Positions 1,684-25,645 are shown, counted from the stretch's first letter. The stretch: DNA of 29,621 bases from a candidate division WOR-3 bacterium (GCA_965649115.1 CBFGJN010000019.1:1-29621), one strand, 5' to 3'. Numbers and translations are program-made. Notes: a model not told the origin generated them from the sequence alone.

Positions 1684-1888
1684 TGCTTTGTCCAGTAATT
1701 ATTGTCAATCACCTGATAATCAATAACTTATAAAATTTTTAGGGAAATTATTGATTTTATGGGGGGATTAAGGGGGGCGTTAGCCCCCCATAACCGAAAA
1801 ATGGGTATTTATAAGGCGAAGCCTTATTCATAGGGTGGGTGGAGAAAATATAGAAATAATCATATTTTTAGAATTACTAGACAAAACA
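1684..1888 (+). mobile_element. MITE-like copy 4 of tandem array (205 bp, full length)
   Basis: TGCTTTGTCCAGTAATT...AATTACTAGACAAAACA with a perfect 9-bp flanking direct repeat AATAATATA (1675-1683 and 1889-1897). Confidence 0.9.
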
Positions 1889-1910
1889 AATAATATAAAA
1901 ATTTGTGCTT

Positions 1911-1916
1911 TAAAAT
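1911..1916 (+). promoter_or_regulatory. Putative -10 box TAAAAT of the lipoprotein operon
   Basis: TGCTT-TAAAAT-TTTC, followed by a short leader with GGAGG before ATG 1942. Confidence 0.65.
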
Positions 1917-1941
1917 TTTCATACTAACGGAGGTAAAAAGT

Positions 1942-2262
1942 ATGAGAAAGTTAATAACAACAACCGTGATGATGCTTTCAATGTTGGGTTGCCAACAGAT
2001 AAAGCCTGAGGAGATAACGAAACCCCTAAATGATAAGATATCTGCTATTGAAGAAAAGATAAAGAATATAGAATCTTGGATAGATGAACAGAAAAAAGCT
2101 GCTGAAAATGCTCCAAAGACTACTGAGGAAATGTCAAAAGCTATTGCTGAATTGAAAAAATCGGTTGAACAATTGAAAAGTGAGCTTTCAAATATAAGTG
2201 GTAGATTATCAAAAGTTGAACAAGCTCAAAAGGTAATGAGTACACCTGGAAAGCAAAAATAA
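1942..2262 (+). CDS. Small coiled-coil lipoprotein
   Basis: Start moved to ATG 1942 (GGAGG upstream); MRK + hydrophobic stretch + MLGC lipobox; heptad-rich remainder. Confidence 0.75.
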   Translation: MRKLITTTVMMLSMLGCQQIKPEEITKPLNDKISAIEEKIKNIESWIDEQKKAAENAPKTTEEMSKAIAELKKSVEQLKSELSNISGRLSKVEQAQKVMSTPGKQK

Positions 2263-2275
2263 AGGAGGAAAGAAT

Positions 2276-3070
2276 ATGAGAAAATTATATATAACCTTAA
2301 CCGCTCTTTCGCTTTTGATATGGGCATGTTCAAAGGAAGATACAACTCCGCCATCTGCTCCACAAAATCTAACAGGAACAGCAGTAAATAATGGTCAAGA
2401 TTTAAAGCTTACTTGGGATGCACCGATAGAGGGAAAACCTAGTAGCTATGATGTTTTATGCGATGGAACAACCGTTGCCTCCGGACTCCCTGATACAACT
2501 ACTACATATACAATTAATGGTGCTCAAAATGTTTGTAAGCAGGTTCAGGTTGTTGCGGTTAGTGGTTCAGGTCAAAGTGCGGCAACACTAGATCTTACAC
2601 CTGCTCAAAGTACTGTTAAACTTTACCGTTCTGATGTTGCTAGCCAACCATCTTGGGCAAAAGTGGTTTTCGGGGCAAATGTTAGTGTAAGTGCTATTTT
2701 TACAAATCAAGTTGATTGTTCAGCAGCAAACACTGGGTATTTTATTTATGCAGTGCCTAATACTTTGAAAGATGTGAGTGCTACACAAAATCCAGGATGC
2801 CAGGCTAAGTACGAGTTTGCCTTCTCACAAGCAGCGACAGGAAATTTAGCTCCTTCTGCTGGAAATTATAATACGGCGAGAGATATATCTGATGGTGCTA
2901 CTTACTTCTATTGGGCTGATAATACAAGTGTAGGATATGGTCAAATTGATGCTAATGATTACTTTGGAAAAGTTGTTGTTTCACTTGGCTCAGATAATAA
3001 TGGTGCTTTTGCTAATCTAACTATATATACTCAAAATAAAGTTCCTGGTCTTCGCTGGGTAAAACAATAA
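2276..3070 (+). CDS. Lipoprotein with N-terminal fibronectin type III-like domain
   Basis: AGGAGG SD; lipobox IWAC; DTTPPSAPQNL..LTWDAP..SYDV FN3 pattern. Confidence 0.75.
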   Translation: MRKLYITLTALSLLIWACSKEDTTPPSAPQNLTGTAVNNGQDLKLTWDAPIEGKPSSYDVLCDGTTVASGLPDTTTTYTINGAQNVCKQVQVVAVSGSGQSAATLDLTPAQSTVKLYRSDVASQPSWAKVVFGANVSVSAIFTNQVDCSAANTGYFIYAVPNTLKDVSATQNPGCQAKYEFAFSQAATGNLAPSAGNYNTARDISDGATYFYWADNTSVGYGQIDANDYFGKVVVSLGSDNNGAFANLTIYTQNKVPGLRWVKQ

Positions 3071-3079
3071 CATTTTTTT

Positions 3080-3096
3080 AGCCCCCGTGTGGGGCT
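3080..3096 (+). terminator. Putative terminator hairpin
   Basis: AGCCCC-CGTGT-GGGGCT 9 nt after the stop; weak U tract. Confidence 0.55.
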
Positions 3097-3102
3097 CTTA
3101 AT

Positions 3103-3657
3103 TTGGAAAACTATTTAAAATCTGTAAATGATTTAAAAAATTTAACAAATTGGCTTGAAGAAATAAAAGAATATTTATTTACTCTAATTTCTGATTTAAA
3201 ACAATCTATTTCAATTGGAAAAAAAATTCTTATTTGTGGGAATGGTGGAAGTTCTGCTGAAAGTTCTCACTTTTCATCTGAACTTGTTTGGAAATTTAAA
3301 AATTTAAGAAAGCCGATTTTTGCAATAAATCTTGTTTCAGATATGTCTTTAATAACAGCAATTGCTAACGATTCTTCATTTGATTATATATTTTCAAGAC
3401 AAGTAGAAGCATTTGGTAATGAGGGCGATTTTTTATTTGCTTTTTCAACATCTGGAAAATCAAAAAATGTTAATTTAGCAGTTAAGAAGGCTTATGAAAA
3501 GAAAATGAAAATTGTTTATATGACAGGAAAAAATTCATTTGAAGTTGAACATTTATGTAATTATGTCTTTAAAGTTCCTTCAAACGATACACCAAGAATT
3601 CAAGAAATTCATTTATTTTTGATCCATTCAATATGTAATGAACTTGAAGAAATATGA
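3103..3657 (+). CDS. gmhA: Phosphoheptose isomerase (SIS domain)
   Basis: ICGNGGSSAESSH, TAIAND..FDYIFSRQVEA, STSGKSKNV, TPRIQEIH. Confidence 0.92.
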   Translation: MENYLKSVNDLKNLTNWLEEIKEYLFTLISDLKQSISIGKKILICGNGGSSAESSHFSSELVWKFKNLRKPIFAINLVSDMSLITAIANDSSFDYIFSRQVEAFGNEGDFLFAFSTSGKSKNVNLAVKKAYEKKMKIVYMTGKNSFEVEHLCNYVFKVPSNDTPRIQEIHLFLIHSICNELEEI

Positions 3658-4166
3658 AGAAGAAAAATATAAAAATTGAAGGAGAAAAGAAAAAATTTAA
3701 CTTTAAAATAAATTTTAGAATAAAATTGAATTACAGAAGAATTTTATATATTCTTGGAGTTATTTTAATTGTTATTTTAATTATTGGATTTTCAATATCA
3801 ACTTATATTTCCATTTCAAGAAGACAATTAGAAACATTAAAAAGAGATTTATTTCCAAAAATAAAAATTGAAATTTACAATGGTTCGGGATACGATGGTA
3901 TTGCAAGGAAATTGACTTGGTATTTAAGAGATAATAATTTTGATGTTGTTTATTATGGTAATGCTTCTGAAACAATAGAAAAAACTATAATTGTTGATAG
4001 GGTTGATAGTTCTATGAAATATGCAAAAATTTTAAAGAATTTTTTAGGTGGAGGAATTGTAAAGTTTGAGCCTGACCCTGATAAATTAACAACAATAACA
4101 ATTCTCATTGGTAGAGATTTCTATAAAATTTTTCCAAAAATTAAAAATTATGATAAAGTTTTTTGA
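3654..4166 (+). CDS. Membrane-anchored LytR C-terminal domain protein
   Basis: One TM helix, then IEIYNGSGYDGIA...GNA...ITILIGRDF. Confidence 0.8.
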   Translation: MKKKNIKIEGEKKKFNFKINFRIKLNYRRILYILGVILIVILIIGFSISTYISISRRQLETLKRDLFPKIKIEIYNGSGYDGIARKLTWYLRDNNFDVVYYGNASETIEKTIIVDRVDSSMKYAKILKNFLGGGIVKFEPDPDKLTTITILIGRDFYKIFPKIKNYDKVF

Positions 4167-4569
4167 AATAGTAGCAACGGGTTTTTATATTGGAAAATTA
4201 AAAAAATTTGGTCCAACAATTTCAATAATATTCGCTATACCTTTTCTATTTTTAAAAGAAAAAATTTTCTTTTTCTTAATAATTTTATTAATCTCAATCA
4301 TTGGTTCATATCTAATGGTAAAAAAAACAAATCAAAAAGACCCACAAGAAGTTGTAATTGATGAGATATTAGGTTTCTTTTTCATTTTTCTTTTTTTGGA
4401 TTTTAATTTGAAAAATTTTTTTATTGCTTTTATTTTTTTTAGGATTTTTGATTTCTTAAAACTATTCCCTATAAATTTTCTTGAAGAAATTCCATATTTT
4501 GGGATTATATTAGATGATTTAATGGCAGGTGCTTACTCGCTTTTAACCATTAAACTTATAGTAAGTTGA
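4150..4569 (+). CDS. pgpA: Phosphatidylglycerophosphatase A
   Basis: ATGFYIG, KDPQEVVIDE, FRIFDFLKLFPI, GIILDDLMAG; ATG 4150 preferred as start. Confidence 0.88.
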   Translation: MIKFFEIVATGFYIGKLKKFGPTISIIFAIPFLFLKEKIFFFLIILLISIIGSYLMVKKTNQKDPQEVVIDEILGFFFIFLFLDFNLKNFFIAFIFFRIFDFLKLFPINFLEEIPYFGIILDDLMAGAYSLLTIKLIVS

Positions 4570-5180
4570 AAAAACTCCTTCAAAAGGACTTTTTAATTTT
4601 ATTTCGTTCTATTGGTTTTTTAATATCTTACATTTCTAATAATTTCATAATGATTTTAATTTTTTCCATTGCTTTATCTTCTCAAACAATTGAAATAATA
4701 AATGGTATTTTTTGGTCAGTATTTTTTTTAAATAGTATTCTAATTGCTTCTAAAATTGTTGAGGAGGAATTTTTGGAAGAGAGTTTTTTTGTTTTAATTA
4801 CTTACTTTTCAGTTGAAAAAATAATTATTTCAAAAATTATAATTGTGTCGTTTTATCTTATTTTTTTTGGCATATTGAATGTTTTTTTTATTTTTTTTAT
4901 TTTTAGTAAATTGATAATTAACCTTAACTTAATTGTTTTCTTATTAATCTCAAGTTTTTCAATAAGTGCTATTTCAATAATGTTAAATTTAATGCTTCAT
5001 AAAGTTCAATCAAAACATTTATTAAGTTATTTACTTTATATCCCTTTATCAATTCCAATTTTTTTGTCATCTTTAAATGGTTCTTTGGAATTCAAAATTG
5101 ATTGGATTTTTCTTTCACTTATTTGTTTATTTTTATATAATTCATTTGTTTTGTTTTATAGCGAGAAGTTTTTGTTTTAG
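4566..5180 (+). CDS. ccmB: CcmB-like ABC exporter permease
   Basis: Multi-TM protein; KDFLILFR at N-terminus, GIFW, LLYIPLSIPIF resembling CcmB LLPLxxP. Confidence 0.6.
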   Translation: MKKLLQKDFLILFRSIGFLISYISNNFIMILIFSIALSSQTIEIINGIFWSVFFLNSILIASKIVEEEFLEESFFVLITYFSVEKIIISKIIIVSFYLIFFGILNVFFIFFIFSKLIINLNLIVFLLISSFSISAISIMLNLMLHKVQSKHLLSYLLYIPLSIPIFLSSLNGSLEFKIDWIFLSLICLFLYNSFVLFYSEKFLF

Positions 5181-5206
5181 TGAAACTAAACAAATTGCCC
5201 TCCGTT

Positions 5207-5225
5207 AGAATTATTGAACAATGCA
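5207..5225 (+). repeat. Isolated right end of the MITE-like element
   Basis: AGAATTATTGAACAATGCA matches 5941-5959 (AGAATTATTGGACAATGCA) at 18 of 19 positions. Confidence 0.7.
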
Positions 5226-5260
5226 ACAAACATAATTTATTATGCTTTAAACTTTCAATT

Positions 5261-5740
5261 ATGATAACACTAATTTTAATTTCCCAAATAACAAGAGAAG
5301 AATTTTTAGAATTTAAAAAATATGTTGAAGTTCAATTTACAAAAACAGAAGAAAAATTTAAAGCTATTGAAACACAAATTCAAACTTCAAACCAAAAAAT
5401 AGAAGATTTAGATAAGAAGCTAACTCAAAGGATAGAAGATTTAGATAAGAAGTTAAACAAAAGAATAGATGACTTAACAACATATCTTTGGATATTTATG
5501 GGGTTTATTACGATCTTAATAGGATTTACAATTGGGTTTGGTTTAAAACCTGTTGAAGAGAAAAAAGCTGATAAGGAATTAGTAATTAAACTTGAACAAA
5601 AAATTCAAAGTTTAGAAGATGAAAACAAAAAATTAAAAAACCAAAATCAAGCTTTAATTTTTATTCTTGAAAAATTTATCAATGGAGCAAGCAAAGAAGA
5701 AATTAAAGCAGAAATTGAATTGATTAAGAGAATGTCATAA
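5261..5740 (+). CDS. Coiled-coil membrane protein with 11-aa repeats (Bdr/DUF1640-like architecture)
   Basis: ATG 5261 is 7 nt after TAAACT; the ORF-track extension runs through a repeat end. IEDLDKKLTQR repeats, one TM helix, C-terminal coiled coil. Confidence 0.65.
   Translation: MITLILISQITREEFLEFKKYVEVQFTKTEEKFKAIETQIQTSNQKIEDLDKKLTQRIEDLDKKLNKRIDDLTTYLWIFMGFITILIGFTIGFGLKPVEEKKADKELVIKLEQKIQSLEDENKKLKNQNQALIFILEKFINGASKEEIKAEIELIKRMS
5399..5476 (+). repeat. 33-bp coding tandem repeat (about 2.4 copies)
   Basis: ATAGAAGATTTAGATAAGAAG at 5399 and 5432; partial third copy at 5465. Confidence 0.85.
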
Positions 5741-5754
5741 TTTTTATGCCTTAT

Positions 5755-5959
5755 TGCTTTGTCTAATAAATAATGTTAAGACCTTGATAATCAATAACTT
5801 ATAAAGATTTTAAGGAAATTATTGATTTTATCGGGGGTTTTAAGGGGGGCTCCGCCCCCCATAGCCGAAAAGTGGGAATTTTGAAGGCGAAGCCTTGGAT
5901 ATAGGGTGGGTGGGGAAAATATAGAAATGATTATATTTCCAGAATTATTGGACAATGCA
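5755..5959 (+). mobile_element. MITE-like element, full length (205 bp)
   Basis: TGCTTTGTCTAATAA...TTATTGGACAATGCA, colinear with 1684-1888; no matching flanking duplication. Confidence 0.9.
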
Positions 5960-5994
5960 AAAATAAATAAAACTTATCCTTTAAAATTTAAACC

Positions 5995-6651
5995 TTGAAG
6001 GAAATAAATAATGAAATCCATGCAATTGATGTTATACAAAGTATCCAAACAACAAAAACACCTCTTACAATTATCATTATTTCAGGAGGAAATAAATTTG
6101 AAAAAATGGCTAAAATTTATGTAAATGATAGAAAAATTTATCATGCGGAATATGAAAGTTATGTAGGAATTGAAGCCCTAAAAAGAATTATAAAATTGCC
6201 TATAAAACGTGTTTATATTATCAAAACAAACAATTTAATAAAGGAAAAAACAATTGATCTTAAAGTTGATGAAGCCCTCTTGAATTTAACATTTCAAAGT
6301 TCAAATCTACCCGCTTTAACAACATTTGTAGATGCCAATTCTATCGTAAATGAATTACAAAAAATTGGTTCAATAATATGTATTTTGTATTATTTTGAAA
6401 GTGATAAATCGGAAATTATTGAAATTGAATATATTGATAATGCCTTTTCAAGCAAAAAAATAGAAATAGCAGATAGAATTTCAGAATTTATTAAAAAATT
6501 TGGGAAGTTTATAGAACAAAATGAAACACTTATTCTTGAAAGAGAAATTGTATATATTTTTCATAAAACAATAAGTACTTATCTTGTTATTGTTGCGAAG
6601 AACGACATTCAAATTGATATTGTTAGAGTTATCCTAAAAAAAATAATATAG
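5995..6651 (+). CDS. DUF4388 (PATAN-like) domain protein, possible C-terminal roadblock-like domain
   Basis: IDVIQSI...KIYVNDRKIYHAEY..YVGIEALKRI pattern. Confidence 0.6.
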   Translation: MKEINNEIHAIDVIQSIQTTKTPLTIIIISGGNKFEKMAKIYVNDRKIYHAEYESYVGIEALKRIIKLPIKRVYIIKTNNLIKEKTIDLKVDEALLNLTFQSSNLPALTTFVDANSIVNELQKIGSIICILYYFESDKSEIIEIEYIDNAFSSKKIEIADRISEFIKKFGKFIEQNETLILEREIVYIFHKTISTYLVIVAKNDIQIDIVRVILKKII

Positions 6652-6668
6652 GGGCAAAAAGCCCCTAT
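6648..6668. terminator. Hairpin between convergent genes, probable bidirectional terminator
   Basis: ATAGGGGC-AAAAA-GCCCCTAT; both TAG stop codons are part of the stem. Confidence 0.7.
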
Positions 6669-7126
6669 TCTTTTAATTCAATCTGAATTTCTTTACCTTT
6701 CTGCTTTTCTGATTTTGGAATAACTAATTTCAAAACACCATTCTTGAATTGTGCAGAAATTTTATCTATTTCAACATCTGTTGGTAATGAGATTTCAGTA
6801 TGGAATTTTCCATACCATATTGATTGATAATGAATTTGTGTTCTTTCCTTTCTTTCATAATGCTCTTTCTTTTCACCAGTAATCGTAAGAACATTATCTT
6901 TTACATGAACCTTTACATCTTCTTTATTTACACCTGGAAGTTCAACAATAACTTCATATCTATCATCTTCCTCAATCATATCTACATTAGGAGACCATAC
7001 GATTGACTTTTTATCCTCCAAGCTTGTGATAGCTTCAGAGAAGGATCTTTCAAACTCCCTAAGTAGTGAAAATGGTCTCTCAAAGATCTCATCAATTATT
7101 GACCTTCTAACTGGTAACCTTCTCAT
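6665..7126 (-). CDS. Hsp20/alpha-crystallin small heat shock protein
   Basis: WSPNVDMIE..VELPGV.KEDVKV..LTITGEK..YGKF...A.FKNGVLKLVIPK; AGGAGGTG SD. Confidence 0.95.
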   Translation of the reverse strand: MRRLPVRRSIIDEIFERPFSLLREFERSFSEAITSLEDKKSIVWSPNVDMIEEDDRYEVIVELPGVNKEDVKVHVKDNVLTITGEKKEHYERKERTQIHYQSIWYGKFHTEISLPTDVEIDKISAQFKNGVLKLVIPKSEKQKGKEIQIELKE

Positions 7127-7254
7127 AGTCTCACCTCCTTTTTAAGGGTTTTATTATATAGGATGAAAATTTTAAAGTTAGTTAACAGTTTATGAAACCT
7201 TTAAAAAATTTTTTTAATTTTTTGTGCTTTATAATATTAGGACTTTATTTTACT

Positions 7255-7276
7255 AAAAGGGGCAAGAAGCCCTTTA
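7255..7276 (-). terminator. Putative intrinsic terminator
   Basis: Minus strand TAAAGGGC-TTCTT-GCCCCTTTT at the stop of the beta-barrel gene. Confidence 0.6.
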
Positions 7277-8116
7277 ATAGGAAACATTTAAACCAGCTGT
7301 AATACCAAGCCTTGTAACTGGTGAATTTTTACCCATTAATGAAAACCCGTAATAACCATATTCATCAGCTACTCCTAGCTTTGCCCAAACAGAAATTGGA
7401 CCAGTTTTGTATTTTAGATATGGCATAATTGAAAAATTAGAAGAAGAAGAGTTAGGAACACTATTACCTCCAACCTTTGCTTCTGTTTTTAATCTATAAA
7501 TAAGATCAAGCCCTAAACTTATTGAAGCAACTTCAGAAAGCCCAAATTTATAGCCTCCACCTACAGCAAAACTTAACTGATCACCTTGATCATATTTTAT
7601 ATTATTTTCTTCACTTTCAAGTGTCAAAGCATAACTAAAATTAGCATGAAAATCTCCTAAACCCGCCATAAATGGAACATTAGTTCCAAGACCAACCAAA
7701 ACTGCATTTTGCCTGTCTGAATTTTCTATCTTATTTATATCAGCCTTAGGTCCTAAATCAATTTGAAAACCAACAAAACCATTAAAGAATAAATATGAAC
7801 CTCCAAATAAGAGGTTCAAGTACTGGGGAGAAAATCCAGAACTAACTGAATTACCAACCTTTGGTGATAACTGATGTTGTGAAAAATTAAAGTCTAATCC
7901 AGCATAAACCTTTGGACCAACTTCAGGTGAAAGAATATAATACTTAGCATTCAAACCAAGATTTAAAACAGAAGCAGTACCATTTAGGTCCTGAGCTTTA
8001 CCAGCGGTGTCGTATTGCTGAGTTGTAGAGCCGTATCCAAGTCTTAGACCACCAGAGAACTTTTCAGCATATGCAACACCAATCAAGAACATCATCGTTG
8101 TTATGAATATTCTCAT
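7274..8116 (-). CDS. Outer-membrane beta-barrel protein
   Basis: Classical signal peptide (..GVAYA), alternating Gly/aromatic beta strands, C-terminal aromatic residue (AGLNVSY), AGGAGGT SD. Confidence 0.75.
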   Translation of the reverse strand: MRIFITTMMFLIGVAYAEKFSGGLRLGYGSTTQQYDTAGKAQDLNGTASVLNLGLNAKYYILSPEVGPKVYAGLDFNFSQHQLSPKVGNSVSSGFSPQYLNLLFGGSYLFFNGFVGFQIDLGPKADINKIENSDRQNAVLVGLGTNVPFMAGLGDFHANFSYALTLESEENNIKYDQGDQLSFAVGGGYKFGLSEVASISLGLDLIYRLKTEAKVGGNSVPNSSSSNFSIMPYLKYKTGPISVWAKLGVADEYGYYGFSLMGKNSPVTRLGITAGLNVSY

Positions 8117-8177
8117 AATTTTTACCTCCTTTTGTAGAGGCTTAAAAGTTTAAGGCATGCTTTATAAATTCACATCC

Positions 8178-8219
8178 TGGGGTTTAATAGAGGGCTGAGC
8201 CCCCATAGGATAAAATGGG
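8178..8219 (+). repeat. Decayed internal fragment of the MITE-like element, interrupted by a younger copy
   Basis: GGGGTTTAATAGAGGGCTGAGCCCCCATAGGATAAAATGGG continues as TATTTAT after 8390, matching the element core. Confidence 0.7.
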
Positions 8220-8382
8220 TGCTTTGTCCAATAATTATTGTTAAATCCTTGATTATCAATAACTTATAAAAGCTTTGAGGAAATTATAGATTTAAACGGG
8301 TATTTATAAGCCGAAGGCTTTTATTTAGGGCGGGTGGGAAAATAAAGAAAAATAAATAATTCTAGAATTTTTGGACAAAGCA
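8220..8382 (+). mobile_element. MITE-like element (163 bp) with 8-bp target duplication
   Basis: Perfect TGCTTTGTCCAA/TTGGACAAAGCA ends; AAAATGGG at 8212-8219 and 8383-8390; first hairpin deleted. Confidence 0.92.
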
Positions 8383-8419
8383 AAAATGGGTATTTATTTG
8401 CTTTAAAATTTTCAAACTT

Positions 8420-8491
8420 CGGGGCATAGCGCAGTGGTAGCGCGCTGCCTTGGGGTGGCAGAGGTCCCGGGTTCAAGTCCCGGTGCCCCGA
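8420..8491 (+). tRNA. tRNA-Pro(GGG), CCA not encoded
   Basis: Acceptor CGGGGCA/TGCCCCG+A; anticodon arm CTGCC-TTGGGGT-GGCAG; T arm CCGGG-TTCAAGT-CCCGG. Confidence 0.96.
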
Positions 8492-8494
8492 TAT

Positions 8495-11405: not shown

Positions 11406-11412
11406 TATCAAG

Positions 11413-11475: not shown

Positions 11476-11497
11476 AACAATGAAATCATTTATTTTT

Positions 11498-11570: not shown

Positions 11571-11578
11571 TTATATTT

Positions 11579-11710
11579 TGCTTTGTCTAGTAAATAGTGT
11601 TAAGTTCTTGATAGTCAATAACTTATAAAAATTCATTCAAAACTCTTGATTTAACGGGGGGCAAAGCCCCCATAGCCGAAAAATGGGCATTTTTAAGCCG
11701 AAGGCTTATT
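11579..11710 (+). mobile_element. MITE-like copy lacking right end
   Basis: TGCTTTGTCTAGTAA, paired motif and both hairpins; starts 8 bp after the previous copy. Confidence 0.8.
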
Positions 11711-11748
11711 AAATAATCTTTCAATTTATCCTTTAAAATTTTCAAACT

Positions 11749-12075
11749 TTGAAACAAAAAGTTCTTGTAATAGGACCTGCCGAATTCAAAAGTGGATTTT
11801 CGCTTGTAGGAGTAGATTATATAACACCATCTGAACCAAATGAAATAAAGAAAATTATAAAAAAACTATACGAAGAGAAGAATTATGGACTTGTAATTAT
11901 TGAAGATGATTACGAAAAGTTTTTTGACCATAGAACAAAAATAATTGTTTATGAAAGTACTAATCCGCTATTCTTTTTACTAAGTTTTGACCCTAAGCAT
12001 AGAGTTTCTGTGGAAGAGCAAATAAGTGAAATTATAAGGATGTCTCTTGGTGTTCAAATGAAAATAAAGTCATGA
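11749..12075 (+). CDS. V/A-type ATP synthase subunit F
   Basis: VLVIG....SGFSLVGV, YGLVII, P, IIRMSLGV; about 108 aa. Confidence 0.8.
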   Translation: MKQKVLVIGPAEFKSGFSLVGVDYITPSEPNEIKKIIKKLYEEKNYGLVIIEDDYEKFFDHRTKIIVYESTNPLFFLLSFDPKHRVSVEEQISEIIRMSLGVQMKIKS

Positions 12076-13379
12076 TAAGAGCTGTTGATATAATAAGAAA
12101 GAAAAGAGATGGTGAAAAGCTTGGAAAAAAGGAAATAGAATTTATTGTAAAGGGTGCTTTAACTGGTGACGTTCCTGATTATCAATTATCTGCTTTGCTT
12201 ATGGCTATATATTTTAGAGGAATGGATTTAAATGAAACAACAGCATTAACAGAAGCTATGATGAAAAGTGGAGAAGTTCTTGAATGGAGTTTTCTTAAAA
12301 AACCAACAGTTGATAAGCACTCAACAGGAGGTGTTGGTGATAAGGTATCAATAGCTCTTGCTCCTCTTGTCGCTTCAACAAATTTAGTTTGTGTTCCTAT
12401 GATTTCAGGAAGGGCATTGGGTCACACAGGTGGAACCTTAGATAAACTTGAATCTATAAAAGGTTATAGGACGAATTTATCAGTTGAAGAGTTTAGAGAA
12501 ATTGTGAAGAACGTAGGATGTTCAATAATAGGTCAAACTGAAAAACTTGTTCCAGCAGATAAGAAATTGTACGCTTTAAGAGATGCTACAAGTACAATTG
12601 AAAGTGTTCCTTTAATTGCATCAAGCATATTAAGTAAAAAATTAGCTGAGGGGGTTAATGCTATTGTTCTTGATGTTAAGGTTGGTTCTGGTGCATTTAT
12701 GCCAAGAGTAAAGGAGGCAAAAGAATTAGCAATGTTAATGGTAGAAATTGGAAAAAAGATGAATAAAAAGATAATAGCTTTAATTACAAATATGGATCAA
12801 CCACTTGGAAAAGCAGTAGGTAATGCCTTAGAAGTAAGAGAAGCTATTGATATATTAAAAGGAAATGGGCCAACTGATGCTACTGAATTAACACTTAGAC
12901 TTGGAAGTTATATGTTATATGCTGTTGATGCTGTTAAAAGTCCAGAAGAAGGTTATAAAAAACTTAAAAATAATTTATATAATGGTGATGGATTAAGAAG
13001 ATTAAGAAGAATGGTTGAGGCACACGGTGGTGATTGGAATTATATTTTATCCGATGACTTCATAAGAACGAGGTATGTATATCATATAACTGCATCAACA
13101 AACGGATATATTTCTCAGCTTGAAACATATAAAATTGGTATTGCTTCTCAGATATTAGGAGCGGGAAGAAATAAAATGGATGACACAATAGATCATAAAG
13201 TAGGAATTATAGTAAATAAGAAAGTTGGCGATAAAGTAGATGAAGGTGATATTATATTTGAAGTAAGAGCGAATGATGAAAATAGATTAAATCAAGCTGT
13301 TGAAATTTTAGAAAATTCCTATAAAATTGTAAAAAGAAAAACTCAACCATTACCTCTAATATATGAAATTATTGAATGA
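12072..13379 (+). CDS. pdp: Pyrimidine-nucleoside (thymidine) phosphorylase
   Basis: DKHSTGGVGDK, SGRALGHTGGTLDKLESI, SSILSKKLAEG, DVKVGSGAF. Confidence 0.95.
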   Translation: MIRAVDIIRKKRDGEKLGKKEIEFIVKGALTGDVPDYQLSALLMAIYFRGMDLNETTALTEAMMKSGEVLEWSFLKKPTVDKHSTGGVGDKVSIALAPLVASTNLVCVPMISGRALGHTGGTLDKLESIKGYRTNLSVEEFREIVKNVGCSIIGQTEKLVPADKKLYALRDATSTIESVPLIASSILSKKLAEGVNAIVLDVKVGSGAFMPRVKEAKELAMLMVEIGKKMNKKIIALITNMDQPLGKAVGNALEVREAIDILKGNGPTDATELTLRLGSYMLYAVDAVKSPEEGYKKLKNNLYNGDGLRRLRRMVEAHGGDWNYILSDDFIRTRYVYHITASTNGYISQLETYKIGIASQILGAGRNKMDDTIDHKVGIIVNKKVGDKVDEGDIIFEVRANDENRLNQAVEILENSYKIVKRKTQPLPLIYEIIE

Positions 13380-14340
13380 AGAAGAAATTCTTAACATAGC
13401 AAAAAGAACAATAGATATTGAGCTTGAAACATTATTTGAATTAAAGGAAAGTTTAGATAATTCATTTATAAAAGCTATTGAAATTCTTTATAATTGTAAA
13501 GGAAAAGTTATATTTACAGGAATTGGAAAATCAGGACATATAGCAAGAAAAATCTCATCAACATTTTCAAGCACAGGAACCCCCTCTATATTTTTACATC
13601 CCGCAGAAGCAATTCACGGAGACTTAGGAATTATTGATAAAGAAGATGTTTTAGTTATTATTTCAAATAGTGGTGAAACTGAAGAAATTATAAATATAAT
13701 TCCATATTTAAAGTTCTTAAATATTCCAATAATTTGTATAACTGGGAATGTTAATTCAACAATTGCACAAAAAAGTGATGTAGTAATAGATATAAAAATC
13801 AAAAGGGAAGCTTGCCCATTTAATCTTGCCCCAACCTCCTCAACAACTGCAATTTTAGTTTTAGGTGATGCTCTTGCTATAACTTTAATGGAACTTAAAG
13901 GTTTCACGAAGGAACAATTTGCTAAGCTACATCCTGGTGGATTAATAGGAAAACGATTAAAAAAAGTTATGGATATTATGCACTCGGGAGATAAAATTCC
14001 AATTGTTTATGAAGATATGACTATGAAAGAAGCAATAATAGAAATAACAAGTAAAGGCTTTGGAGCAACTGCTGTATTAGACAGAAATCAAAATTTAATA
14101 GGTATTATTACTGATGGTGATTTAAGAAGGTACATTGAAAAAGGAAATGATTTAAATAATGGAAGTGTTAGGAATGCTATGACTAGAAATCCCAAAACAA
14201 TAAAATATAATGAAACAGTAGCGGATGCATTAAATCTAATGGAAAAATATAAAATAACAGTTTTACTTGTTTTAGATGAAAATAACAAACTTATAGGTAT
14301 CTTACATTTACACGATATTTTAAGAGAAGGTATTTTATAA
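13363..14340 (+). CDS. kdsD: KpsF/GutQ arabinose-5-phosphate isomerase (SIS + 2 CBS)
   Basis: TGIGKSGHI, HPAEAIHGDLG, EACPFNLAPTSST, HPGG, GIITDGDLRR. Confidence 0.93.
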   Translation: MKLLNEEEILNIAKRTIDIELETLFELKESLDNSFIKAIEILYNCKGKVIFTGIGKSGHIARKISSTFSSTGTPSIFLHPAEAIHGDLGIIDKEDVLVIISNSGETEEIINIIPYLKFLNIPIICITGNVNSTIAQKSDVVIDIKIKREACPFNLAPTSSTTAILVLGDALAITLMELKGFTKEQFAKLHPGGLIGKRLKKVMDIMHSGDKIPIVYEDMTMKEAIIEITSKGFGATAVLDRNQNLIGIITDGDLRRYIEKGNDLNNGSVRNAMTRNPKTIKYNETVADALNLMEKYKITVLLVLDENNKLIGILHLHDILREGIL

Positions 14341-14342
14341 AA

Positions 14343-14425
14343 GTTGAGGTCCAGAAATAAGCCTTTGGCTTAAAAATACCCCTTTTTGGCTTTCAATTAC
14401 TTAACATTATTTATTGGACAAAGCA
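14343..14425 (-). mobile_element. Short reverse MITE-like copy between convergent genes
   Basis: AAGCCTTTGGCTT hairpin, AAATACCC, TTATTGGACAAAGCA ending at 14425; the other end is degenerate (GTCCAG). Confidence 0.75.
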
Positions 14426-14438
14426 TTGCTAACGCTCA

Positions 14439-15302
14439 CTACAAAACTTCTACCAAAACAAAACCCTTATTATATTCAACAATTCTAATTTTATAAACTG
14501 AACTATCAGGAAGTTTTAAATAGTAAATTAAGTTTTTACTAACAAAAGTATGAACACTTAAATTATAATCACTCCACCATTCATCTCCAATTATAGAATT
14601 ATAGTAATCTGTTTTAAAACTATCATTATCTTCATTTTCACTTTTCAATCTGAAAATATCTATGCCTGATGGTAAAGTTTCCTTAACATAAATATCAATT
14701 GTATCCTTTCCAACTTTAACAGGAAACTTTCCTATTCCCCATATATTTAATTTAATATCATTTTGACCATTTATATAAACATCCCATGTTGAATCCCTAT
14801 AATAAGTGCTACTTTTATATTTCAAATTTTCTAAATCAATGTAAGAACTAATTGGAAATGAGAAATTTATACTATCATTAACAATTGTTTTAACACTATC
14901 AGAAAATGAAATAAATTTAACTTTTACAAATTTTTTATTTCTTGTCTTAAAAATATATATGCTATCCAAGTAAATTTTATCTATTGCTCTAATGTACTCA
15001 TCATTTTTATAATTTATTCCGTCTAAACTTGCTTTTACATTTTCATTTAATAAAATTGTTGGATTTGGAACACTTCCGAGAATAAAACCATCTCCTAAAT
15101 CAAAATCAACTTCAAGATTAGTTGCAATAAATTTTAAGTGCCATTCTTCATTTGGATTAATTGTCCATTTTTTTGTCTTTACATTAAAATAGTATTCTTG
15201 ATATTTTAAATCATAATTCCCAACATTATTAAATTCACTTTGTTTTTTAGAACATGATATTAAAATAATGATGGGGACTAAAAGTCCCCAAAATTTATTC
15301 AT
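14439..15302 (-). CDS. HmuY-like lipoprotein (two repeats)
   Basis: Lipobox LISC; YYFN..WHLKF; IYIFKTR..FVKVKF; WDVY; WW.DYN..H..SK..IYYLK....YKIRIVEY. Confidence 0.65.
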   Translation of the reverse strand: MNKFWGLLVPIIILISCSKKQSEFNNVGNYDLKYQEYYFNVKTKKWTINPNEEWHLKFIATNLEVDFDLGDGFILGSVPNPTILLNENVKASLDGINYKNDEYIRAIDKIYLDSIYIFKTRNKKFVKVKFISFSDSVKTIVNDSINFSFPISSYIDLENLKYKSSTYYRDSTWDVYINGQNDIKLNIWGIGKFPVKVGKDTIDIYVKETLPSGIDIFRLKSENEDNDSFKTDYYNSIIGDEWWSDYNLSVHTFVSKNLIYYLKLPDSSVYKIRIVEYNKGFVLVEVL

Positions 15303-15943
15303 TGTGCTTTTATAGCTTTTATAAGTTTATCATCTTCGCTTGAAGGACTTGGATAGTTGGAATTTCCTTTTAATCTTACAAATATAACATCTTTATTTAT
15401 GCTCCAAACCATTGATATAAGCAAAATTCCTTCTGGAGGTGTTACACCTTGATGAAAATAAGTGTAATCTTGCTTAACTTTTGTAACTACAAATGTTCCC
15501 GCAGGGACATTTTCTTGAACATTAACGGAATCAACTAGTGTTTTTACAGTAATTTTTATTTGAAGATTTGGAGATATAATTGTACTATCAGTCCAACTAT
15601 CTCCTGAATTTACATTAGCCCTAATTAATCTTGAAATTATATAATAAACTTGATTTTGAAAATTAAGAGGAATTGATATAATTATTGAATCAGAAGCATT
15701 TATATAAAAGATGTTTGAATTTTGAGTAGTATCAAGAAGTGGATAAAATTTTATATTGTTTATTGTAGTTTCAGGTCTTACTACAAGTTTAAATGTATCA
15801 GTTGTATTGTTTCTTTGCCTTTGGAATAACCAGCTATCACCGACTTTTACTGAGTATTGAGGATTCGGAGATGGACTTGTTGAACTGCTTTTACTACAAG
15901 CTATAATTGATAATGTTAGAATTATAAGGGTTATCTTCCTCAT
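15299..15943 (-). CDS. Lipoprotein of unknown function
   Basis: MRKI + hydrophobic stretch + IIAC; VGDSW and VPAGTF motifs; ATG 15943 is 7 nt after TAAAAT. Confidence 0.7.
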   Translation of the reverse strand: MRKITLIILTLSIIACSKSSSTSPSPNPQYSVKVGDSWLFQRQRNNTTDTFKLVVRPETTINNIKFYPLLDTTQNSNIFYINASDSIIISIPLNFQNQVYYIISRLIRANVNSGDSWTDSTIISPNLQIKITVKTLVDSVNVQENVPAGTFVVTKVKQDYTYFHQGVTPPEGILLISMVWSINKDVIFVRLKGNSNYPSPSSEDDKLIKAIKAQ

Positions 15944-15970
15944 AGTCAAAATTTTAAAGTTAAAAAAAAT

Positions 15971-17407
15971 TCAATTTTTAAAATTTTTTTCAAAAATTAC
16001 AGTAAATGTTCTTCCTGTAAAATATGGAAGGTTTACAGAAGAGGTTTTATCTAATAAATCGTTAATTTTAAAAGTTATAAGTTTTGATTTCATCTCTAAA
16101 TCAAGTGAGTACAAATTAGGAATAAGTTGAGTTTTCCCTTTTGACCAAAATTCAACTTCAAAATTTTTATAATTCAATTTCAAGTTAAATTTATAGGGTG
16201 GAATATCTATTGGCGTTTTTCCAATAAAAAATGATAATCCTATTATAAATTCATTAAAATAAAAATTTTTTTCAAAGCTAATACTATAAATCTCAATGTC
16301 TTGGAGGTTTTCATAAGTCCATAAAATTAAATTGTTTTGATAGCCTAAGTTATAAAAGCCAATGTAATTAAAAACTTTATTATAATTTAAAAGAAAGTTC
16401 CAAAAATTAAAGTTAATCCCAAATAATTTTTCATTCTTTAATTTACTATTACCAATAACCATATAACCCATTTCAGGATAATAAAATTTCATAAACAATT
16501 CTTTTGCTGATGGATAGCGTGATATTAAGAACAATTTTAAATTTTTGTACTCTAAATTGAAACTTGGTTGAAGGTTTTCAAAATTTAACTTAATTAGAAA
16601 TTTTTTGTAAAATTCAATAGAGAATAAAAATCTAAAAAAATTAACATCAAAAGCGATGTTGTTTCCTTTCAAATAATCATTATAAAATCCATAATTTATC
16701 TTAAAATAATAGTTTTTTTTAATGTTTTTATATTCGTTCTGAAACTTCAAGAAAAACTCTTCATTAAAATTTATATCTTCATTCCTAAAATTGTAAAAGT
16801 GTTTGTAAATTTGAATGTTAAAATTATGAAAACTTAAAATTGTTCTAAAATCAGAAAAAATTTCATCAAATAGCGTTGTTTTTTGATTGTAAATATAAGA
16901 AAAAGAAAAATTATCAAAAGCAAAACTATTGTAAAAGCAATAATTTTTAATATAACTATAAATATCCTTAGATATTGAAAAATTAAATTTTGACTTTTTA
17001 TTCCCATAGGATAAATCAGAAAAATAGCTACCATTTGATTTTAAAAAAATTTTAAAATTATTTTCTTCTGTTGTTTTTAAATAAACATTAAACCCATCAA
17101 ATTTAATATCCTTAATTGAATTTATAGGAATTGTTAAAATATCTATTGCTTCAAATTTTCTTCCTATTATTTCATTTCCATCAATATAGACATTTGTAAA
17201 TTTTGATGGAATTCCTAAAATTGATATACTTAAACCTGATGGATTAAATTCAATATCACTTATTGTTGATTTTAATAGTAAATTATCCATATTAGGATTT
17301 TTGATTTCATAAATATGATTTTCTATTTTTTTTGAAATAACAACTTGTTCATTTAATTTATATTCCTTTATTGTATCCTTTTCTAAATTTAGAAAAATGT
17401 TCAGCAT
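15971..17407 (-). CDS. Reduced TonB-dependent receptor-like outer-membrane protein
   Basis: Plug-like ISILG..SKFTNVYIDG, RYPSAKELF..GNSKLKNEK, INDLLDK..GRTF near C-terminus. Alternative start GTG 17446. Confidence 0.65.
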   Translation of the reverse strand: MLNIFLNLEKDTIKEYKLNEQVVISKKIENHIYEIKNPNMDNLLLKSTISDIEFNPSGLSISILGIPSKFTNVYIDGNEIIGRKFEAIDILTIPINSIKDIKFDGFNVYLKTTEENNFKIFLKSNGSYFSDLSYGNKKSKFNFSISKDIYSYIKNYCFYNSFAFDNFSFSYIYNQKTTLFDEIFSDFRTILSFHNFNIQIYKHFYNFRNEDINFNEEFFLKFQNEYKNIKKNYYFKINYGFYNDYLKGNNIAFDVNFFRFLFSIEFYKKFLIKLNFENLQPSFNLEYKNLKLFLISRYPSAKELFMKFYYPEMGYMVIGNSKLKNEKLFGINFNFWNFLLNYNKVFNYIGFYNLGYQNNLILWTYENLQDIEIYSISFEKNFYFNEFIIGLSFFIGKTPIDIPPYKFNLKLNYKNFEVEFWSKGKTQLIPNLYSLDLEMKSKLITFKINDLLDKTSSVNLPYFTGRTFTVIFEKNFKN

Positions 17408-17464
17408 TTTGAAAATTTTAAAGTTTAGGAATATTATTATCAACACTTTAAAATTTCAAATGTT

Positions 17465-18172
17465 ATGAAAGTTATAGCAGGAAACTGGAAAATGAATTTA
17501 ATACTAAGTGAGGCAATAGATTTAGCTATATCTATTAAAACTTCCAATAGAAATGAAATTATTTTATTTCCTCCAAGTATTTACGCATTAAAAATTAAGG
17601 AATTATTGAGTGATAAAAATATAAAAGTTGGTGTTCAGAATGTATTTTATGAGGAATTTGGTGCTTTTACAGGAGAAATATCTGCTCCTATGGTAAAAAG
17701 TTGTAATTTAGATTATGTTTTAATTGGTCATAGCGAAAGAAGAAAATTTTTTTATGAAACAGATGAAATTATAAATAAGAAAATTAAAAAAGCTTTAAGC
17801 TTTAATTTAAATGTGATTTTATGTGTTGGTGAAACACTATCCGAAAGAGAAAGTAGAAAACATTTTGAAGTAGTTAAAAAGCAAGTTTTGAGTGCTATTG
17901 AAGGAATTGATAATTTTGAAAATTTAAAAATTGCATATGAACCTGTTTGGGCTATCGGAACGGGAATAAATGCAAAACCTGAAGATGCTAATGAGATGCA
18001 TCATTTTATAAAAGAAATTATAAATTTATATGTTTTATATGGGGGAAGTGTAAATGAAAATAATGCTTATAGCTTATTATCTCAAAATTACATTGATGGA
18101 CTTCTTATTGGAAATGCAAGTCTAAAAAAAGAATCATTTAACAAAATTATTGAAATTGCTGAGCTTTTTTAA
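17465..18172 (+). CDS. tpiA: Triosephosphate isomerase
   Basis: IAGNWKMN, GAFTGEIS, IGHSERR, IAYEPVWAIGTG, LYGGSV. Confidence 0.97.
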   Translation: MKVIAGNWKMNLILSEAIDLAISIKTSNRNEIILFPPSIYALKIKELLSDKNIKVGVQNVFYEEFGAFTGEISAPMVKSCNLDYVLIGHSERRKFFYETDEIINKKIKKALSFNLNVILCVGETLSERESRKHFEVVKKQVLSAIEGIDNFENLKIAYEPVWAIGTGINAKPEDANEMHHFIKEIINLYVLYGGSVNENNAYSLLSQNYIDGLLIGNASLKKESFNKIIEIAELF

Positions 18173-19298
18173 GGGCTTTATAAACATTAACCAATCCACA
18201 ACCTGTTTTTTCATCAAATCCTAGTAAATTAACATCTTCTGCTGTTGAGCATAAAATGTCTCTTACTTGATTAAAGTTTAAATTAGGATTTATTGATAAA
18301 ATCAAGCCAATTACACCTGATATGAAAGGTGTTGCCATTGAAGTTCCCGTCAAACAGGCATAACCTTTTAATACTTCATTCATTCCACAACTATTTGTAG
18401 CTTGTAAATTTGAATTAATTGTGGAAATTATCCACACACCAGGTGCCATAATATCAAGCTCTTTACCCCAAGAACTAAAACTTGCTTTTTGGCTCGTGGT
18501 ATCCCAAGCACCAACAGCTATAACACTATCATAAGCTGCGGGATAATTAACAAGTCCTCCATCGTTACCTGCAGCAGCAACAACAATTTTATTGTATTTA
18601 ATAGCAGTATCAATTGCTTCCTTAATAGTATTAGAACCAACTAGGCTACCAAGACTTAAATTTAAAACTTTAACATTTGGATTTTTTGAAGCCATAATAA
18701 TAGCACTTGAAACATCATAATCAGAGCAATTTCCAATAGTATCACAAGCTCTATAAGAATATAGTCTGAAATTACCAATACCAGCAATTCCAATAAAATT
18801 ATCCATGGTTGCTGAAATTATACCTGCAACATGTGTCCCGTGTATTTCTGTTGTTATATTCTTGTTGGGTAATGGGTCATTATCATTATCTATAAAGTCA
18901 TATCCTTTATTTAAAGGATCAAATTGTGCAATTAAATCAGGATGCTGATAATCAACGCCTTGGTCTATAATAGCAATTCCAATAGTTTGTGAACCTTTCG
19001 TAATATCCCAAGCTTTATCTAAATATGTTATATAAGCATTCCATTGATATTTTCTGAAAAGTGAATCATTCGGAATAAATGTTATTTTATAATTTACAGC
19101 ATTTTGAATGTAAAGAATGCTTGAATTCTTTTCAATTTTATTTATATCTTTTGTTTTTATTACAACTGCATTTAGACCATAAATTTCTTTCTTTACAATG
19201 TTTCTATGTTTTTTTACAAAAGTCTCTTTTGAAAAACTATCTTTAAATCTAACAATAAACTCATCTTCTATAATTTGATTTAAAATTAAGAACATCAT
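18147..19298 (-). CDS. S8 subtilisin/thermitase-like serine protease with propeptide
   Basis: Triad IAIIDQG / HGTHVAGII / GTSMATP, and AAAGND; 26-bp convergent overlap with tpiA. Confidence 0.93.
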   Translation of the reverse strand: MMFLILNQIIEDEFIVRFKDSFSKETFVKKHRNIVKKEIYGLNAVVIKTKDINKIEKNSSILYIQNAVNYKITFIPNDSLFRKYQWNAYITYLDKAWDITKGSQTIGIAIIDQGVDYQHPDLIAQFDPLNKGYDFIDNDNDPLPNKNITTEIHGTHVAGIISATMDNFIGIAGIGNFRLYSYRACDTIGNCSDYDVSSAIIMASKNPNVKVLNLSLGSLVGSNTIKEAIDTAIKYNKIVVAAAGNDGGLVNYPAAYDSVIAVGAWDTTSQKASFSSWGKELDIMAPGVWIISTINSNLQATNSCGMNEVLKGYACLTGTSMATPFISGVIGLILSINPNLNFNQVRDILCSTAEDVNLLGFDEKTGCGLVNVYKALKKAQQFQ

Positions 19299-19675
19299 AT
19301 CTTTTTAGTCCTTATAAAAACTTTTTGTTTTGTGCTTGAATTTAAAATTACTGCATAGTACTTTCCTGATTTTACAATAGGTTGCTTTAAATCTATTTCT
19401 CTAAGGTTATCATAACTTACAATAAATTGAGCATTTTCATTATTTTTCCACTTATTAAAATTATCTTCATCAGCAATAAAAAATTTTTGTATATTAGTTT
19501 CAGTAGCATAAAATCCAAAATCGATTGTATCTCCTTCATTTAAATATCCACCATTTGAAAAATAACTATTTGGATTTAATGTAATAGCACCAAAAAATTT
19601 ATTATATTCTTCACTTGGGGCTCCAATTTTTTGACAACTTATTAAAACAAAAAGAAGGAAAATAAATAATATCAA
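19295..19675 (-). CDS. Small lipoprotein of unknown function
   Basis: Hydrophobic N-terminus + LISC; stop overlaps the protease ATG (ATGA). Confidence 0.7.
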   Translation of the reverse strand: MILFIFLLFVLISCQKIGAPSEEYNKFFGAITLNPNSYFSNGGYLNEGDTIDFGFYATETNIQKFFIADEDNFNKWKNNENAQFIVSYDNLREIDLKQPIVKSGKYYAVILNSSTKQKVFIRTKKI

Positions 19676-19703
19676 TTTTTAAAATTTTAAAGCATAGATT
19701 ATT

Positions 19704-19816
19704 ATAATGATGTTAAGAGAGGTTTTAATGGGGGACGAATTTATAAGCCTAAGGCCTATTTTTAGGGTGGGGGAAATATAGTAAAATAAATAATTTCAGA
19801 ATTCCTAGACACAGCA
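19704..19816 (+). mobile_element. MITE-like copy, left end decayed
   Basis: AGCCTAAGGC hairpin, TAGGGTGGGGG, CAGAATTCCTAGACACAGCA ending at 19816. Confidence 0.8.
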
Positions 19817-19851
19817 AAATAATTTTCTAATAATCCTATAAAATTTTATGC

Positions 19852-25641: not shown

Positions 25642-25645
25642 ACTT

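Follow-up and report, generated by a model that had tools for sequence, protein, structure and literature searches.

A MITE and its IS903-type parent probably insert in fixed orientation at a set distance from promoter -10 elements in a candidate division WOR-3 bacterium

Insertion at a fixed distance upstream of housekeeping (sigma-A) promoters has been described for the Mutator-like elements TnGBS, ISLre2 and some members of ISKra4 which, according to PMC3942029, insert 15-17 bp upstream of the -35 box with the right inverted repeat (IR) proximal to the promoter and with repeats of 8-9 bp; the authors of that paper propose that TnGBS contacts the polymerase, offer no further mechanism and call the specificity atypical. 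Here we describe a MITE (miniature inverted-repeat transposable element) and its parent insertion sequence (IS) from a candidate division WOR-3 bacterium, as found in a window of 29,621 nt (GCA_965649115.1, CBFGJN010000019.1:1-29621) which is the whole of contig C19 of a 99-contig genome of 1,848,020 bases with 27.6% G+C (G000). The MITE and its IS903-type parent very probably home to host promoters in a fixed orientation, with the near edge of the target lying 13 nt from the -10 hexamer. Promoter targeting in prokaryotes is documented for one superfamily, and here an unrelated and simpler enzyme shows the same behaviour.

In the window the right terminal inverted repeats (TIRs) ending at 1888, 5225, 5959, 8382 and 19816 are followed after 22, 22, 22, 21 and 22 nt by hexamers starting at 1911, 5248, 5982, 8404 and 19839, always in the same orientation and with unrelated sequences in between, just as the original prediction, made from the sequence of the window, had read them. 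Across the genome, the first TAAAAT after 468 right ends was located at offset 22 in 122 cases, at 21 in 42 and at 12-16 in 60 (31 of these at 14), and the anticipated peak at 21-22 nt over background is present at right ends and not at left ends: 177 of the 468 right ends carry any TAAAAT at 21-22 nt versus 4 of 310 left ends (Fisher p = 1.8e-40; 1.4 expected by chance per offset). The 310 left ends, read outward, gave no TAAAAT peak, with a largest count of 11 at offset 27. When a position weight matrix (PWM) trained on element-free promoters only was applied to the 356 right ends with no further copy behind them, a strong motif was found within 45 nt in 261, with 180 at 21-22 nt and 64 at 12-16 nt; in the controls the motif was found at 33 of 310 left ends, where it was scattered, and at 108 of 3000 random sites, where it was flat. 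Many of the right ends that are left over carry TATAAT or TAAACT at the same distance. Four related genomes (G001-G004) were used for comparison, and in G002, sampled as 391 kb for the distance count, 21 of 45 right ends lie at 21-22 nt and six at 14 nt, with no peak among 32 left ends. The claim of a promoter-aimed MITE in fixed orientation, whose geometry is unlike that of TnGBS and ISLre2 (15-17 bp upstream of the -35; PMC3942029), is supported genome-wide.

The exact target duplications are 9 bp in 34 copies and 8 bp in one copy of the class with a 22-nt gap, and 8 bp in six and 9 bp in five copies of the class with a 21-nt gap; the promoter-proximal cut is the steadier of the two. In the window both the 9-bp duplication of the copy ending at 1888 and the 8-bp duplication of the copy ending at 8382 leave 13 nt before the hexamer, as had been noted, and the suggestion that an 8-bp duplication is what gives a 21-nt gap applies to the six copies but fails for the five with 9 bp. 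Within the 22-nt class the distance from the hexamer to the start codon ranges from 6 to 14 nt, which indicates that the ruler is the hexamer.

The hexamer is part of a word found at 603 sites of the genome, where an open reading frame (ORF) of at least 80 codons begins 4-14 nt after TT+T[AT]AA[AC]T; when starts 4-45 nt past the hexamer are included there are 1015 sites, and the commonest distance is 7 nt. At the element-free sites among the 603 only tta..CTTTAAAATTTtaAa is conserved, with no -35 signal. The proposed overlap of the target with the -35 region therefore stands as a matter of position only. The TIR as a supplier of the -35 was considered and rejected, since TAGACA would stand at 27 nt from the hexamer for main-class copies and at 19 nt for those with a 14-nt gap. 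The word precedes 31 of 45 tRNA genes, the distance from the end of the hexamer to the tRNA 5' end falling into two classes, 7-11 nt in 17 genes and 14-16 nt in 12, and it therefore belongs to transcription and not to translation; it is also kept before a BamA-like gene and the aconitase gene in four relatives. From this we infer that the TAAAAT word is a real -10 element. Start codons are mostly found 6-10 nt past the hexamer genome-wide (in the window at 5982-5997, 19839-19854 and 26375-26360), so that most mRNAs would be leaderless or nearly so, and TTG is the start codon in 130 of the 603 genes.

The consensus of the MITE is 205-210 nt long, and a hidden Markov model (HMM) built on 73 full copies has 782 matches in the genome, equal to 5.3% of its 1.85 Mb; the right end is included in 460 of these matches, the left in 321 and the two together in 207. 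The TIR tips are TGCTTTGTCC on the left and GGACAnAGCA on the right, with the outer ends reading TGCTTTGTCCAGTAATT... and ...AATTACTAGACAnAGCA, respectively. An exact 9-nt duplication stands directly outside the TIRs in 95 of 194 full copies, while 68 of the 194 have none of at least 4 nt; a stricter pass gave 99 full copies with an exact 9-bp duplication. The copies are old, at about 80% identity, and their left and right arms match the left and right ends of the parent IS. No Rfam family corresponds to the element, and within the window only a tRNA was matched. Being short and non-coding, with TIRs in common with an autonomous element, with duplications and with a high copy number, the element is a MITE. 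Folded as RNA, the copy at 5755-5959 gives -64.8 kcal/mol (z = -4.3 versus shuffled sequences) with a G6/C6 hairpin and an AAGCC/GGCTT hairpin, and positions ~43-58 of the MITE, AACTTATAAAAATTTT, are a decayed form of the promoter word that stands before the IS transposase gene. Head-to-tail stacks are marked by 112 of 468 right ends, from which the left TIR of the next copy is reached after 8-9 nt. Dimers on contigs C1 and C3, and similarly on C4, have a common inner spacer, ACTAACTCT in C1 and CTAACTCT in C3; identical 9-mers bound the entire C1 dimer, those around the C3 dimer are similar to each other, and the dimers look as if they were units that moved together.

Both ends of the window (1-116 and 29499-29621) are MITE copies and 26 other contig ends lie in the parent IS, which means that the assembly breaks at MITE and IS repeats and that the counts of copies given here are minimum values. 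One identical sequence of 101-126 nt, starting with TGCCTTGTCCAATAATTC, closes sixteen contig ends and is the IS right end; ten other contig ends close with a sequence starting with TGCTTTGTCCAATAAATA, which is the left end. The ends of the IS are TGCTTTGTCCAATAA and TGCCTTGTCCAATAA with the tips TGCYTTGTCC, and eight of the first ten bases agree with GGCTTTGTTG of the IS903 group (PMC6382973), the first base being T instead of G. The left end bears the promoter word and the start of an ORF, 49 residues of which match a 300-aa protein, P0002, at 96% (47/49, one variant); P0002 scores 245.5 bits with NF033579 (cut-off 140; model positions 2-288 of 289) and also contains PF13737 and PF01609. By these domains the parent is an IS5-family, IS903-type IS predicted to encode one DDE transposase. 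A 9-bp duplication, as in IS5/IS903 elements, is present in that seven of ten left flanks pair with a right flank (one after a 1-nt shift). The IS transposase gene is itself preceded by the host promoter word, GGATTTAAAATTTTGGAATG, with its ATG 6 nt past the hexamer (G000 C50:14008-14223). As to length, for which about 1-1.1 kb with a single ORF would be expected in the IS903 group, a degenerate relative (L025) measures 922 bp between the ends and distant relatives 989-1022 bp, the interior of the IS being unassembled in this genome; relatives at 34-48% identity carry the ends TGCTGTGTCGA or TGCTTTGTTGCA.

The autonomous element with the same TIRs that had been postulated is therefore represented by the IS ends at the 26 contig ends, to which P0002 was matched. 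A Mutator-like partner, as in TnGBS and ISLre2, was not borne out, as NF033529 has no match in the genome and the parent belongs to the IS903 type; PF00872 likewise matches nothing in this genome, and G003 gave a single fragment of 58 positions. Searches of the genome with the ISLre2, rve, Transposase_mut, DDE_Tnp_1 and DDE_Tnp_1_2 families returned nothing, which is explained by the collapse of the IS interior in the assembly, and no transposase was found among the multi-copy ORFs of the genome. A contig search with a single protein gave nothing, and an alignment-based one only the relatives at 34-48% identity. Closer relatives (P0003 and P0004) are 67-72% identical. Matches to DDE_Tnp_1 in the sister genus showed no relation to P0002 by tblastn and were set aside. 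Pairs of TIRs 0.7-15 kb apart were also rejected as autonomous copies, every candidate holding host genes (named from their translations: a methyltransferase paralogue, FemAB-like, alanine racemase and dihydroorotate dehydrogenase).

Among the 603 promoters 372 are free of the element, and a right end is found at 21-22 nt in 149, at 12-16 nt in 61 and elsewhere in 21. The exact 11-mer CTTTAAAATTT is found next to a start codon in 380 copies, 130 of them occupied at 21-22 nt and 46 at 12-16 nt. In 15 solo sites for which the empty site was reconstructed nothing is conserved upstream of or within the duplication. The MITE is present in many copies in G000 and G002 and in few in G003; it was not found in G001, and G004 gave a weak partial match only. 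The BamA-like and aconitase promoters keep the motif without the element in G001, G003 and G004, together with the TTG start of the BamA-like gene, while in front of the BamA-like promoter a right end stands at a distance of 22 nt in G000 and of 14 nt in G002; these are two independent events. Since the automatic labelling of orthologous pairs as occupied or empty (22 versus 2) was too lenient, 24 pairs were re-read by eye, and 23 were valid. At these 23 promoters, all occupied in G002, G000 has a right-type end at 13-23 nt in 15, in many cases from a different subfamily or in a different register; in one it has a left end, inverted, at 14 nt, in three remnants only, and in four an empty site with an intact promoter.

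Young copies are represented by the IS itself. Of its 16 right ends, which are identical in sequence, 11 have TAAAAT at 21-22 nt, three abut a TIR tip after 9 nt and two are elsewhere, while none of the ten left ends lies at 21-22 nt or at the 9-nt distance from a TIR tip. The left flanks whose 9 bp recur at a right flank allowed empty sites to be reconstructed. In one such pair the IS adjoins a resident MITE at a standard site; in another it interrupts the tip of a resident MITE that stood just 12 nt from the hexamer, which shows that the distance is measured from the promoter and not from the resident copy; two pairs lie against MITE left TIRs, one of them within the 9-bp spacer of a stack. 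Six of seven right ends of IS relatives (61-88% identity) on metagenome contigs are at a rule distance (five at 21-22 nt and one at 14 nt). An IS903-like palindrome was looked for in the flanks and was not seen.

The mode of insertion that would account for these data has the MITE derived from the IS and moved by it, with a transposition complex whose choice of target would depend on the stereotyped promoter word of the host, (T/A)nCTTTAAAATTT. In the main mode a staggered 9-bp cut would end 13 nt upstream of the TAAAAT hexamer and, with the hexamer at -12 to -7, would cover about -34 to -26; the right end (IRR) always faces the promoter, which places the right TIR 22 (sometimes 21) nt from the hexamer. 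The -10 word and the sequence up to -26 are left untouched, and thus the promoter survives. In a minor mode the 9-bp target would directly adjoin TGCTTT, whether this is the start of a promoter (gap 14) or the tip of a resident TIR, and new copies hitting the same 9 bp would build up head-to-tail stacks such as the one at 1291-1888 of the window. In the gap-14 class TG is found at -17/-16 in 15 of 28 sites compared with 13% of element-free promoters (p = 1.4e-6), and TG promoters carry 15 elements at gap 14 versus 21 at gap 21-22, as against 13 versus 128 for the others (odds ratio 7, p = 1.7e-5). The TG makes the promoter start as TGCTTT, which is the TIR tip, and the duplication adjoins it as it does in stacks; among 25 solo copies that lack a standard promoter, eight abut a TIR tip in this manner, as do three of the 16 young IS copies. 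An origin of the gap-14 class only by deletion from stacks was rejected, for at the site of one gap-14 copy of G002 (pair L036_-_11197) G000 is empty and reads TGCTTTAAAAT, and among the metagenome copies of the IS one lies at 14 nt.

Two other ways of producing the pattern leave the target choice of the transposase out of account. The 22 nt and the -10 box could be the true right end of the element, which would then be a Correia-like mobile promoter, and the words that follow some right ends are indeed alike (families D15 and D18), as are occupied sites from CTTT on. However, the target duplication lies between the right TIR and the promoter word, the spacers are unrelated, 372 of the 603 promoters have no element and the motif is present at empty orthologous sites; the promoter does not lie within the bounds of the element as it would in a Correia-like one, and the position of the duplication together with the empty sites refutes this explanation, to which we give next to no credence. 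It could also be that insertion is random or biased to AT-rich DNA and that purifying selection leaves the copies upstream of promoters. The age of the MITE copies, about 80% identical, would allow for this, and so would the published behaviour of relatives, as IS903 and ISAba13 show only a regional bias to AT-rich DNA bound by H-NS (bioRxiv 10.1101/2024.02.16.580519) and IS903 itself has a weak palindromic target motif (PMC2577343). A peak that is sharp to 1 bp and in one orientation cannot arise by selection among intergenic sites, however, and the rule is obeyed by 11 of 16 sequence-identical copies, with the same 9 bp being hit repeatedly. Selection has not had time to sort IS copies that are identical, and the pattern therefore reflects target choice and not survival bias; we consider random insertion very improbable.

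How the promoter would be recognised is less clear. The transposase could be tethered to the promoter-bound RNA polymerase holoenzyme, through sigma or another subunit, as has been proposed for TnGBS by the authors of PMC3942029. This would agree with a target that is set by a signal for transcription and falls within the stretch that a polymerase would cover, with the use of the variant hexamers TATAAT, TAAACT and TATACT at the same distance, and with the close likeness of occupied and empty promoters that share an 11-mer. On the other side, the TG that makes TGCTTT moves the insertion by 8 bp, young IS copies land 9 bp from TIR tips without a promoter at the standard distance, and the protein has only 300 aa with no domain beyond two IS5-type Pfam domains. 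We regard a tether as possible, though somewhat doubtful, and guidance by sigma as somewhat disfavoured. The 8-bp shift of register favours direct reading of DNA, since a ruler made of polymerase gives no reason for it, and is the strongest pointer at hand, short of proof, to a transposase that reads the DNA on its own; that it does so, without docking on promoter-bound polymerase, has about even odds. A tentative extension, for which we would claim a minority chance, is that a 300-aa transposase of the IS5/IS903 type evolved base-exact and oriented promoter homing independently of the Mutator-like elements, reading the extended -10 word universal to the host with the surface that reads its own ends. 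If this is true the MITE swarm could be standard promoter-upstream DNA, acting for example as an insulator against read-through or as AT-rich upstream DNA.

Several observations weigh against homing to promoters by the 13-nt rule, or narrow what can be drawn from it. About 100 of the 356 array-terminal right ends show a strong motif at neither of the two distances, and two of the 16 young IS copies are at neither distance. The MITEs, at ~80% identity, have passed through selection, and the fraction of them found at promoters is therefore higher than the raw specificity would give. Where the exact 11-mer is present, occupied and empty promoters are nearly alike, so that nothing explains why some are empty and nothing separates DNA reading from docking. 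The evidence on the order of insertion in stacks is small and mixed, the downstream copy being newer in eight pairs and the upstream copy in four, with eight ambiguous and ten that fit neither. The link of the IS to P0002 consists of its first 49-56 residues, encoded by the left end, and its last 13, encoded by the right end, and the assignment of the hexamer as a -10 rests on position and conservation.

The copies of the MITE in the window are collected in Table 1.

Table 1. MITE copies and remnants in the 29,621-nt window
Feature	Coordinates	Strand	Evidence and remarks
MITE left arm	2..116	-	nhmmer, model 1-116, E=6e-28; cut by contig start, left TIR outer end 116
Stack copy 1, remnant	1291..1337	+	Sequence, repeat families D8/D9; right TIR end 1337, then AATAATAGA 1338-1346
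Stack copy 2, internal deletion	1347..1488	+	nhmmer 1385-1490, model 105-208; then AATAATATA 1489-1497
Stack copy 3	1498..1674	+	nhmmer 1498-1676, model 1-208, E=4.5e-41; then AATAATATA 1675-1683
Stack copy 4, full-length, promoter-proximal	1684..1888	+	nhmmer, E=7e-56; then AATAATATA 1889-1897
Lone right-TIR remnant	5207..5225	+	Sequence; 22 nt before TAAACT 5248-5253
Full MITE	5755..5959	+	nhmmer, E=4e-58; 22-nt gap to TAAAAT 5982-5987
MITE without G-rich hairpin	8219..8382	+	Sequence/nhmmer; within older remnant 8150-8218
MITE left arm and core, right arm lost	11579..11709	+	nhmmer, model 1-145; TAAAAT 11734-11739, TTG 11749
Left-arm remnant without right end (placed at 14343 in the original prediction)	14349..14425	-	Sequence, nhmmer
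Right-arm remnant	19737..19816	+	nhmmer, model 123-208; 22-nt gap to TAAAAT 19839-19844
Right-type TIR tip	23598..23612	-	Sequence, tip form; 22 nt from minus-strand TAAAAT 23575-23570
Left-TIR remnant, orphan TIR	26422..26445	-	Sequence; upstream of minus-strand TAAAAT 26375-26370, ATG 26362
Right arm at contig end	29499..29617	-	nhmmer, model 87-208, E=2e-31; right end 29499

The stack at 1291-1888 has the 9-mer AATAATATA between copies and after the last one, three times identically, and AATAATAGA once; the last duplication is followed by 13 nt, TAAAAT at 1911-1916, a GGAGG and a gene with its ATG at 1942. The remnant ending at 5225 precedes an ORF listed from 5180 whose true start is likely the ATG at 5262, and the orthologue of its promoter in G002 has a copy at 14 nt (pair L037_+_14709). 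Past the hexamer at 5982-5987 a TTG start follows after 7 nt, at 5995. The copy ending at 8382 is flanked by the 8-bp duplication AAAATGGG at 8211-8218 and 8383-8390, with TAAAAT at 8404-8409 and a tRNA-Pro gene at 8419-8492, the end of which lies 2 nt before ATG 8495, the start used for the aconitase gene. Downstream of TAAAAT 19839-19844 the BamA-like gene starts with TTG at 19852.

Three further ends had been mentioned separately in the original prediction. The end at 23598 is indeed 22 nt from a minus-strand TAAAAT, but it had been taken for a left end, whereas its tip TGCTGTGTCC is the form typical of right ends, and it is therefore probably a right end on the minus strand. The end at 14343 was called ambiguous, and it is decayed as described; the copy, at 14349-14425, has no right arm from which a distance could be read. 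The end at 29499 is a real exception, with TAAAAT at 12 nt, no gene start after it and nothing at the standard distance. The TIR tip at 23598-23612 overlaps the 3' end of an ORF at 23584-25749 (minus strand, 721 aa; methyltransferase-like, as judged by eye), whose last codons and stop come from the TIR fragment. The MITE right end at 29499 is just upstream of an ORF at 28319-29416 (minus strand, 365 aa) which, by eye, appears to be the C-terminal part of a large membrane transporter, and the element may have split this transporter-like gene. Elsewhere in the genome a gene resembling S-adenosylmethionine-dependent methyltransferases is present in three diverged copies (C21:8972-, C23:599- and C46), one of them split, each with the promoter word and MITE pieces upstream.

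Base-exact promoter homing is known so far only for an unrelated transposase family, and promoter homing by an IS5-family element was named in no title or abstract among the literature searched, a body of text that leaves out most subscription journals. A protein of 300 aa, two short ends and an 11-base word make a system simple enough for DNA reading to be separated from docking. The case also shows how hundreds of copies can be held in a 1.85-Mb genome with little damage to genes: the MITE swarm is found upstream of about half of the strongest promoters, and at about a third to a half of promoters the upstream DNA is reshaped by the element. It marks promoters in an uncultured lineage, and an integrase that lands upstream of them in one orientation could serve as a tool.

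By its transposase the element is closest to the IS903 group, which includes ISAba12 with MITEAba12 (PMC6382973); shared with this group are a single DDE protein of ~300 aa with PF13737 and PF01609, a 9-bp (sometimes 8-bp) duplication, MITEs that have the IRs of their parent, and IR tips (GGCTTTGTTG in PMC6382973) that are like the TGCTTTGTCC found here. The published targets of this group are a weak palindrome, WTTYA-N9-TRAAW, for IS903 (PMC2577343, Table 1), AT-rich DNA for MITEAba12 (PMC6382973) and H-NS-bound regions for IS903-type elements and ISAba13 (bioRxiv 10.1101/2024.02.16.580519); unlike the target described here, none of these is promoter-anchored, oriented and base-exact. Within the IS903 group, ISHysp1 family is the NCBI name for proteins at 43-45% identity. 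Relatives at 34-40% identity, represented by 34 copies in six archaeal genomes, have the same kind of ends and duplications of 8-9 bp, and no common word was seen in the right flanks of these 34 copies, which were compared by eye only; the promoter specificity may accordingly be young. The minor mode, in which the duplication lies against a TIR tip, resembles the insertion of IS30-type elements beside their own inverted repeats. Site-abutting ISs are described for the ISAba32 subgroup at XerCD sites (bioRxiv 10.1101/2022.12.17.520857). Elements that abut IRs or XerCD sites match only the minor mode, whereas the main mode is measured 13 nt from the -10 word. In the eukaryotic retroelement Ty3 the integrase binds TFIIIB/TFIIIC at RNA polymerase III start sites with near base-exact placement (as cited in PMC3942029); the use of a transcription start as a safe landing mark is shared, and Ty3 is set apart as a retroelement with a known contact to host proteins. 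With TnGBS, ISLre2 and ISKra4 the element shares a fixed upstream distance, one orientation, a promoter-proximal right IR, duplications of 8-9 bp and the sparing of genes. Of the features of these promoter-targeting elements (p-MULT 3 and 4), fixed orientation and 8-9-bp repeats were found here, and a Mutator-like transposase and the 15-17-bp geometry were not. The enzymes differ, being Mutator-like there and of the IS5/IS903 type here with no NF033529 or PF00872 match, and so does the ruler, which runs from the IR end to the -35 in TnGBS and its kin and places the IR end 22 nt upstream of the -10 hexamer in the present element. A dominant MITE swarm of hundreds of copies and a second register at TGCTTT also set the WOR-3 element apart from them.

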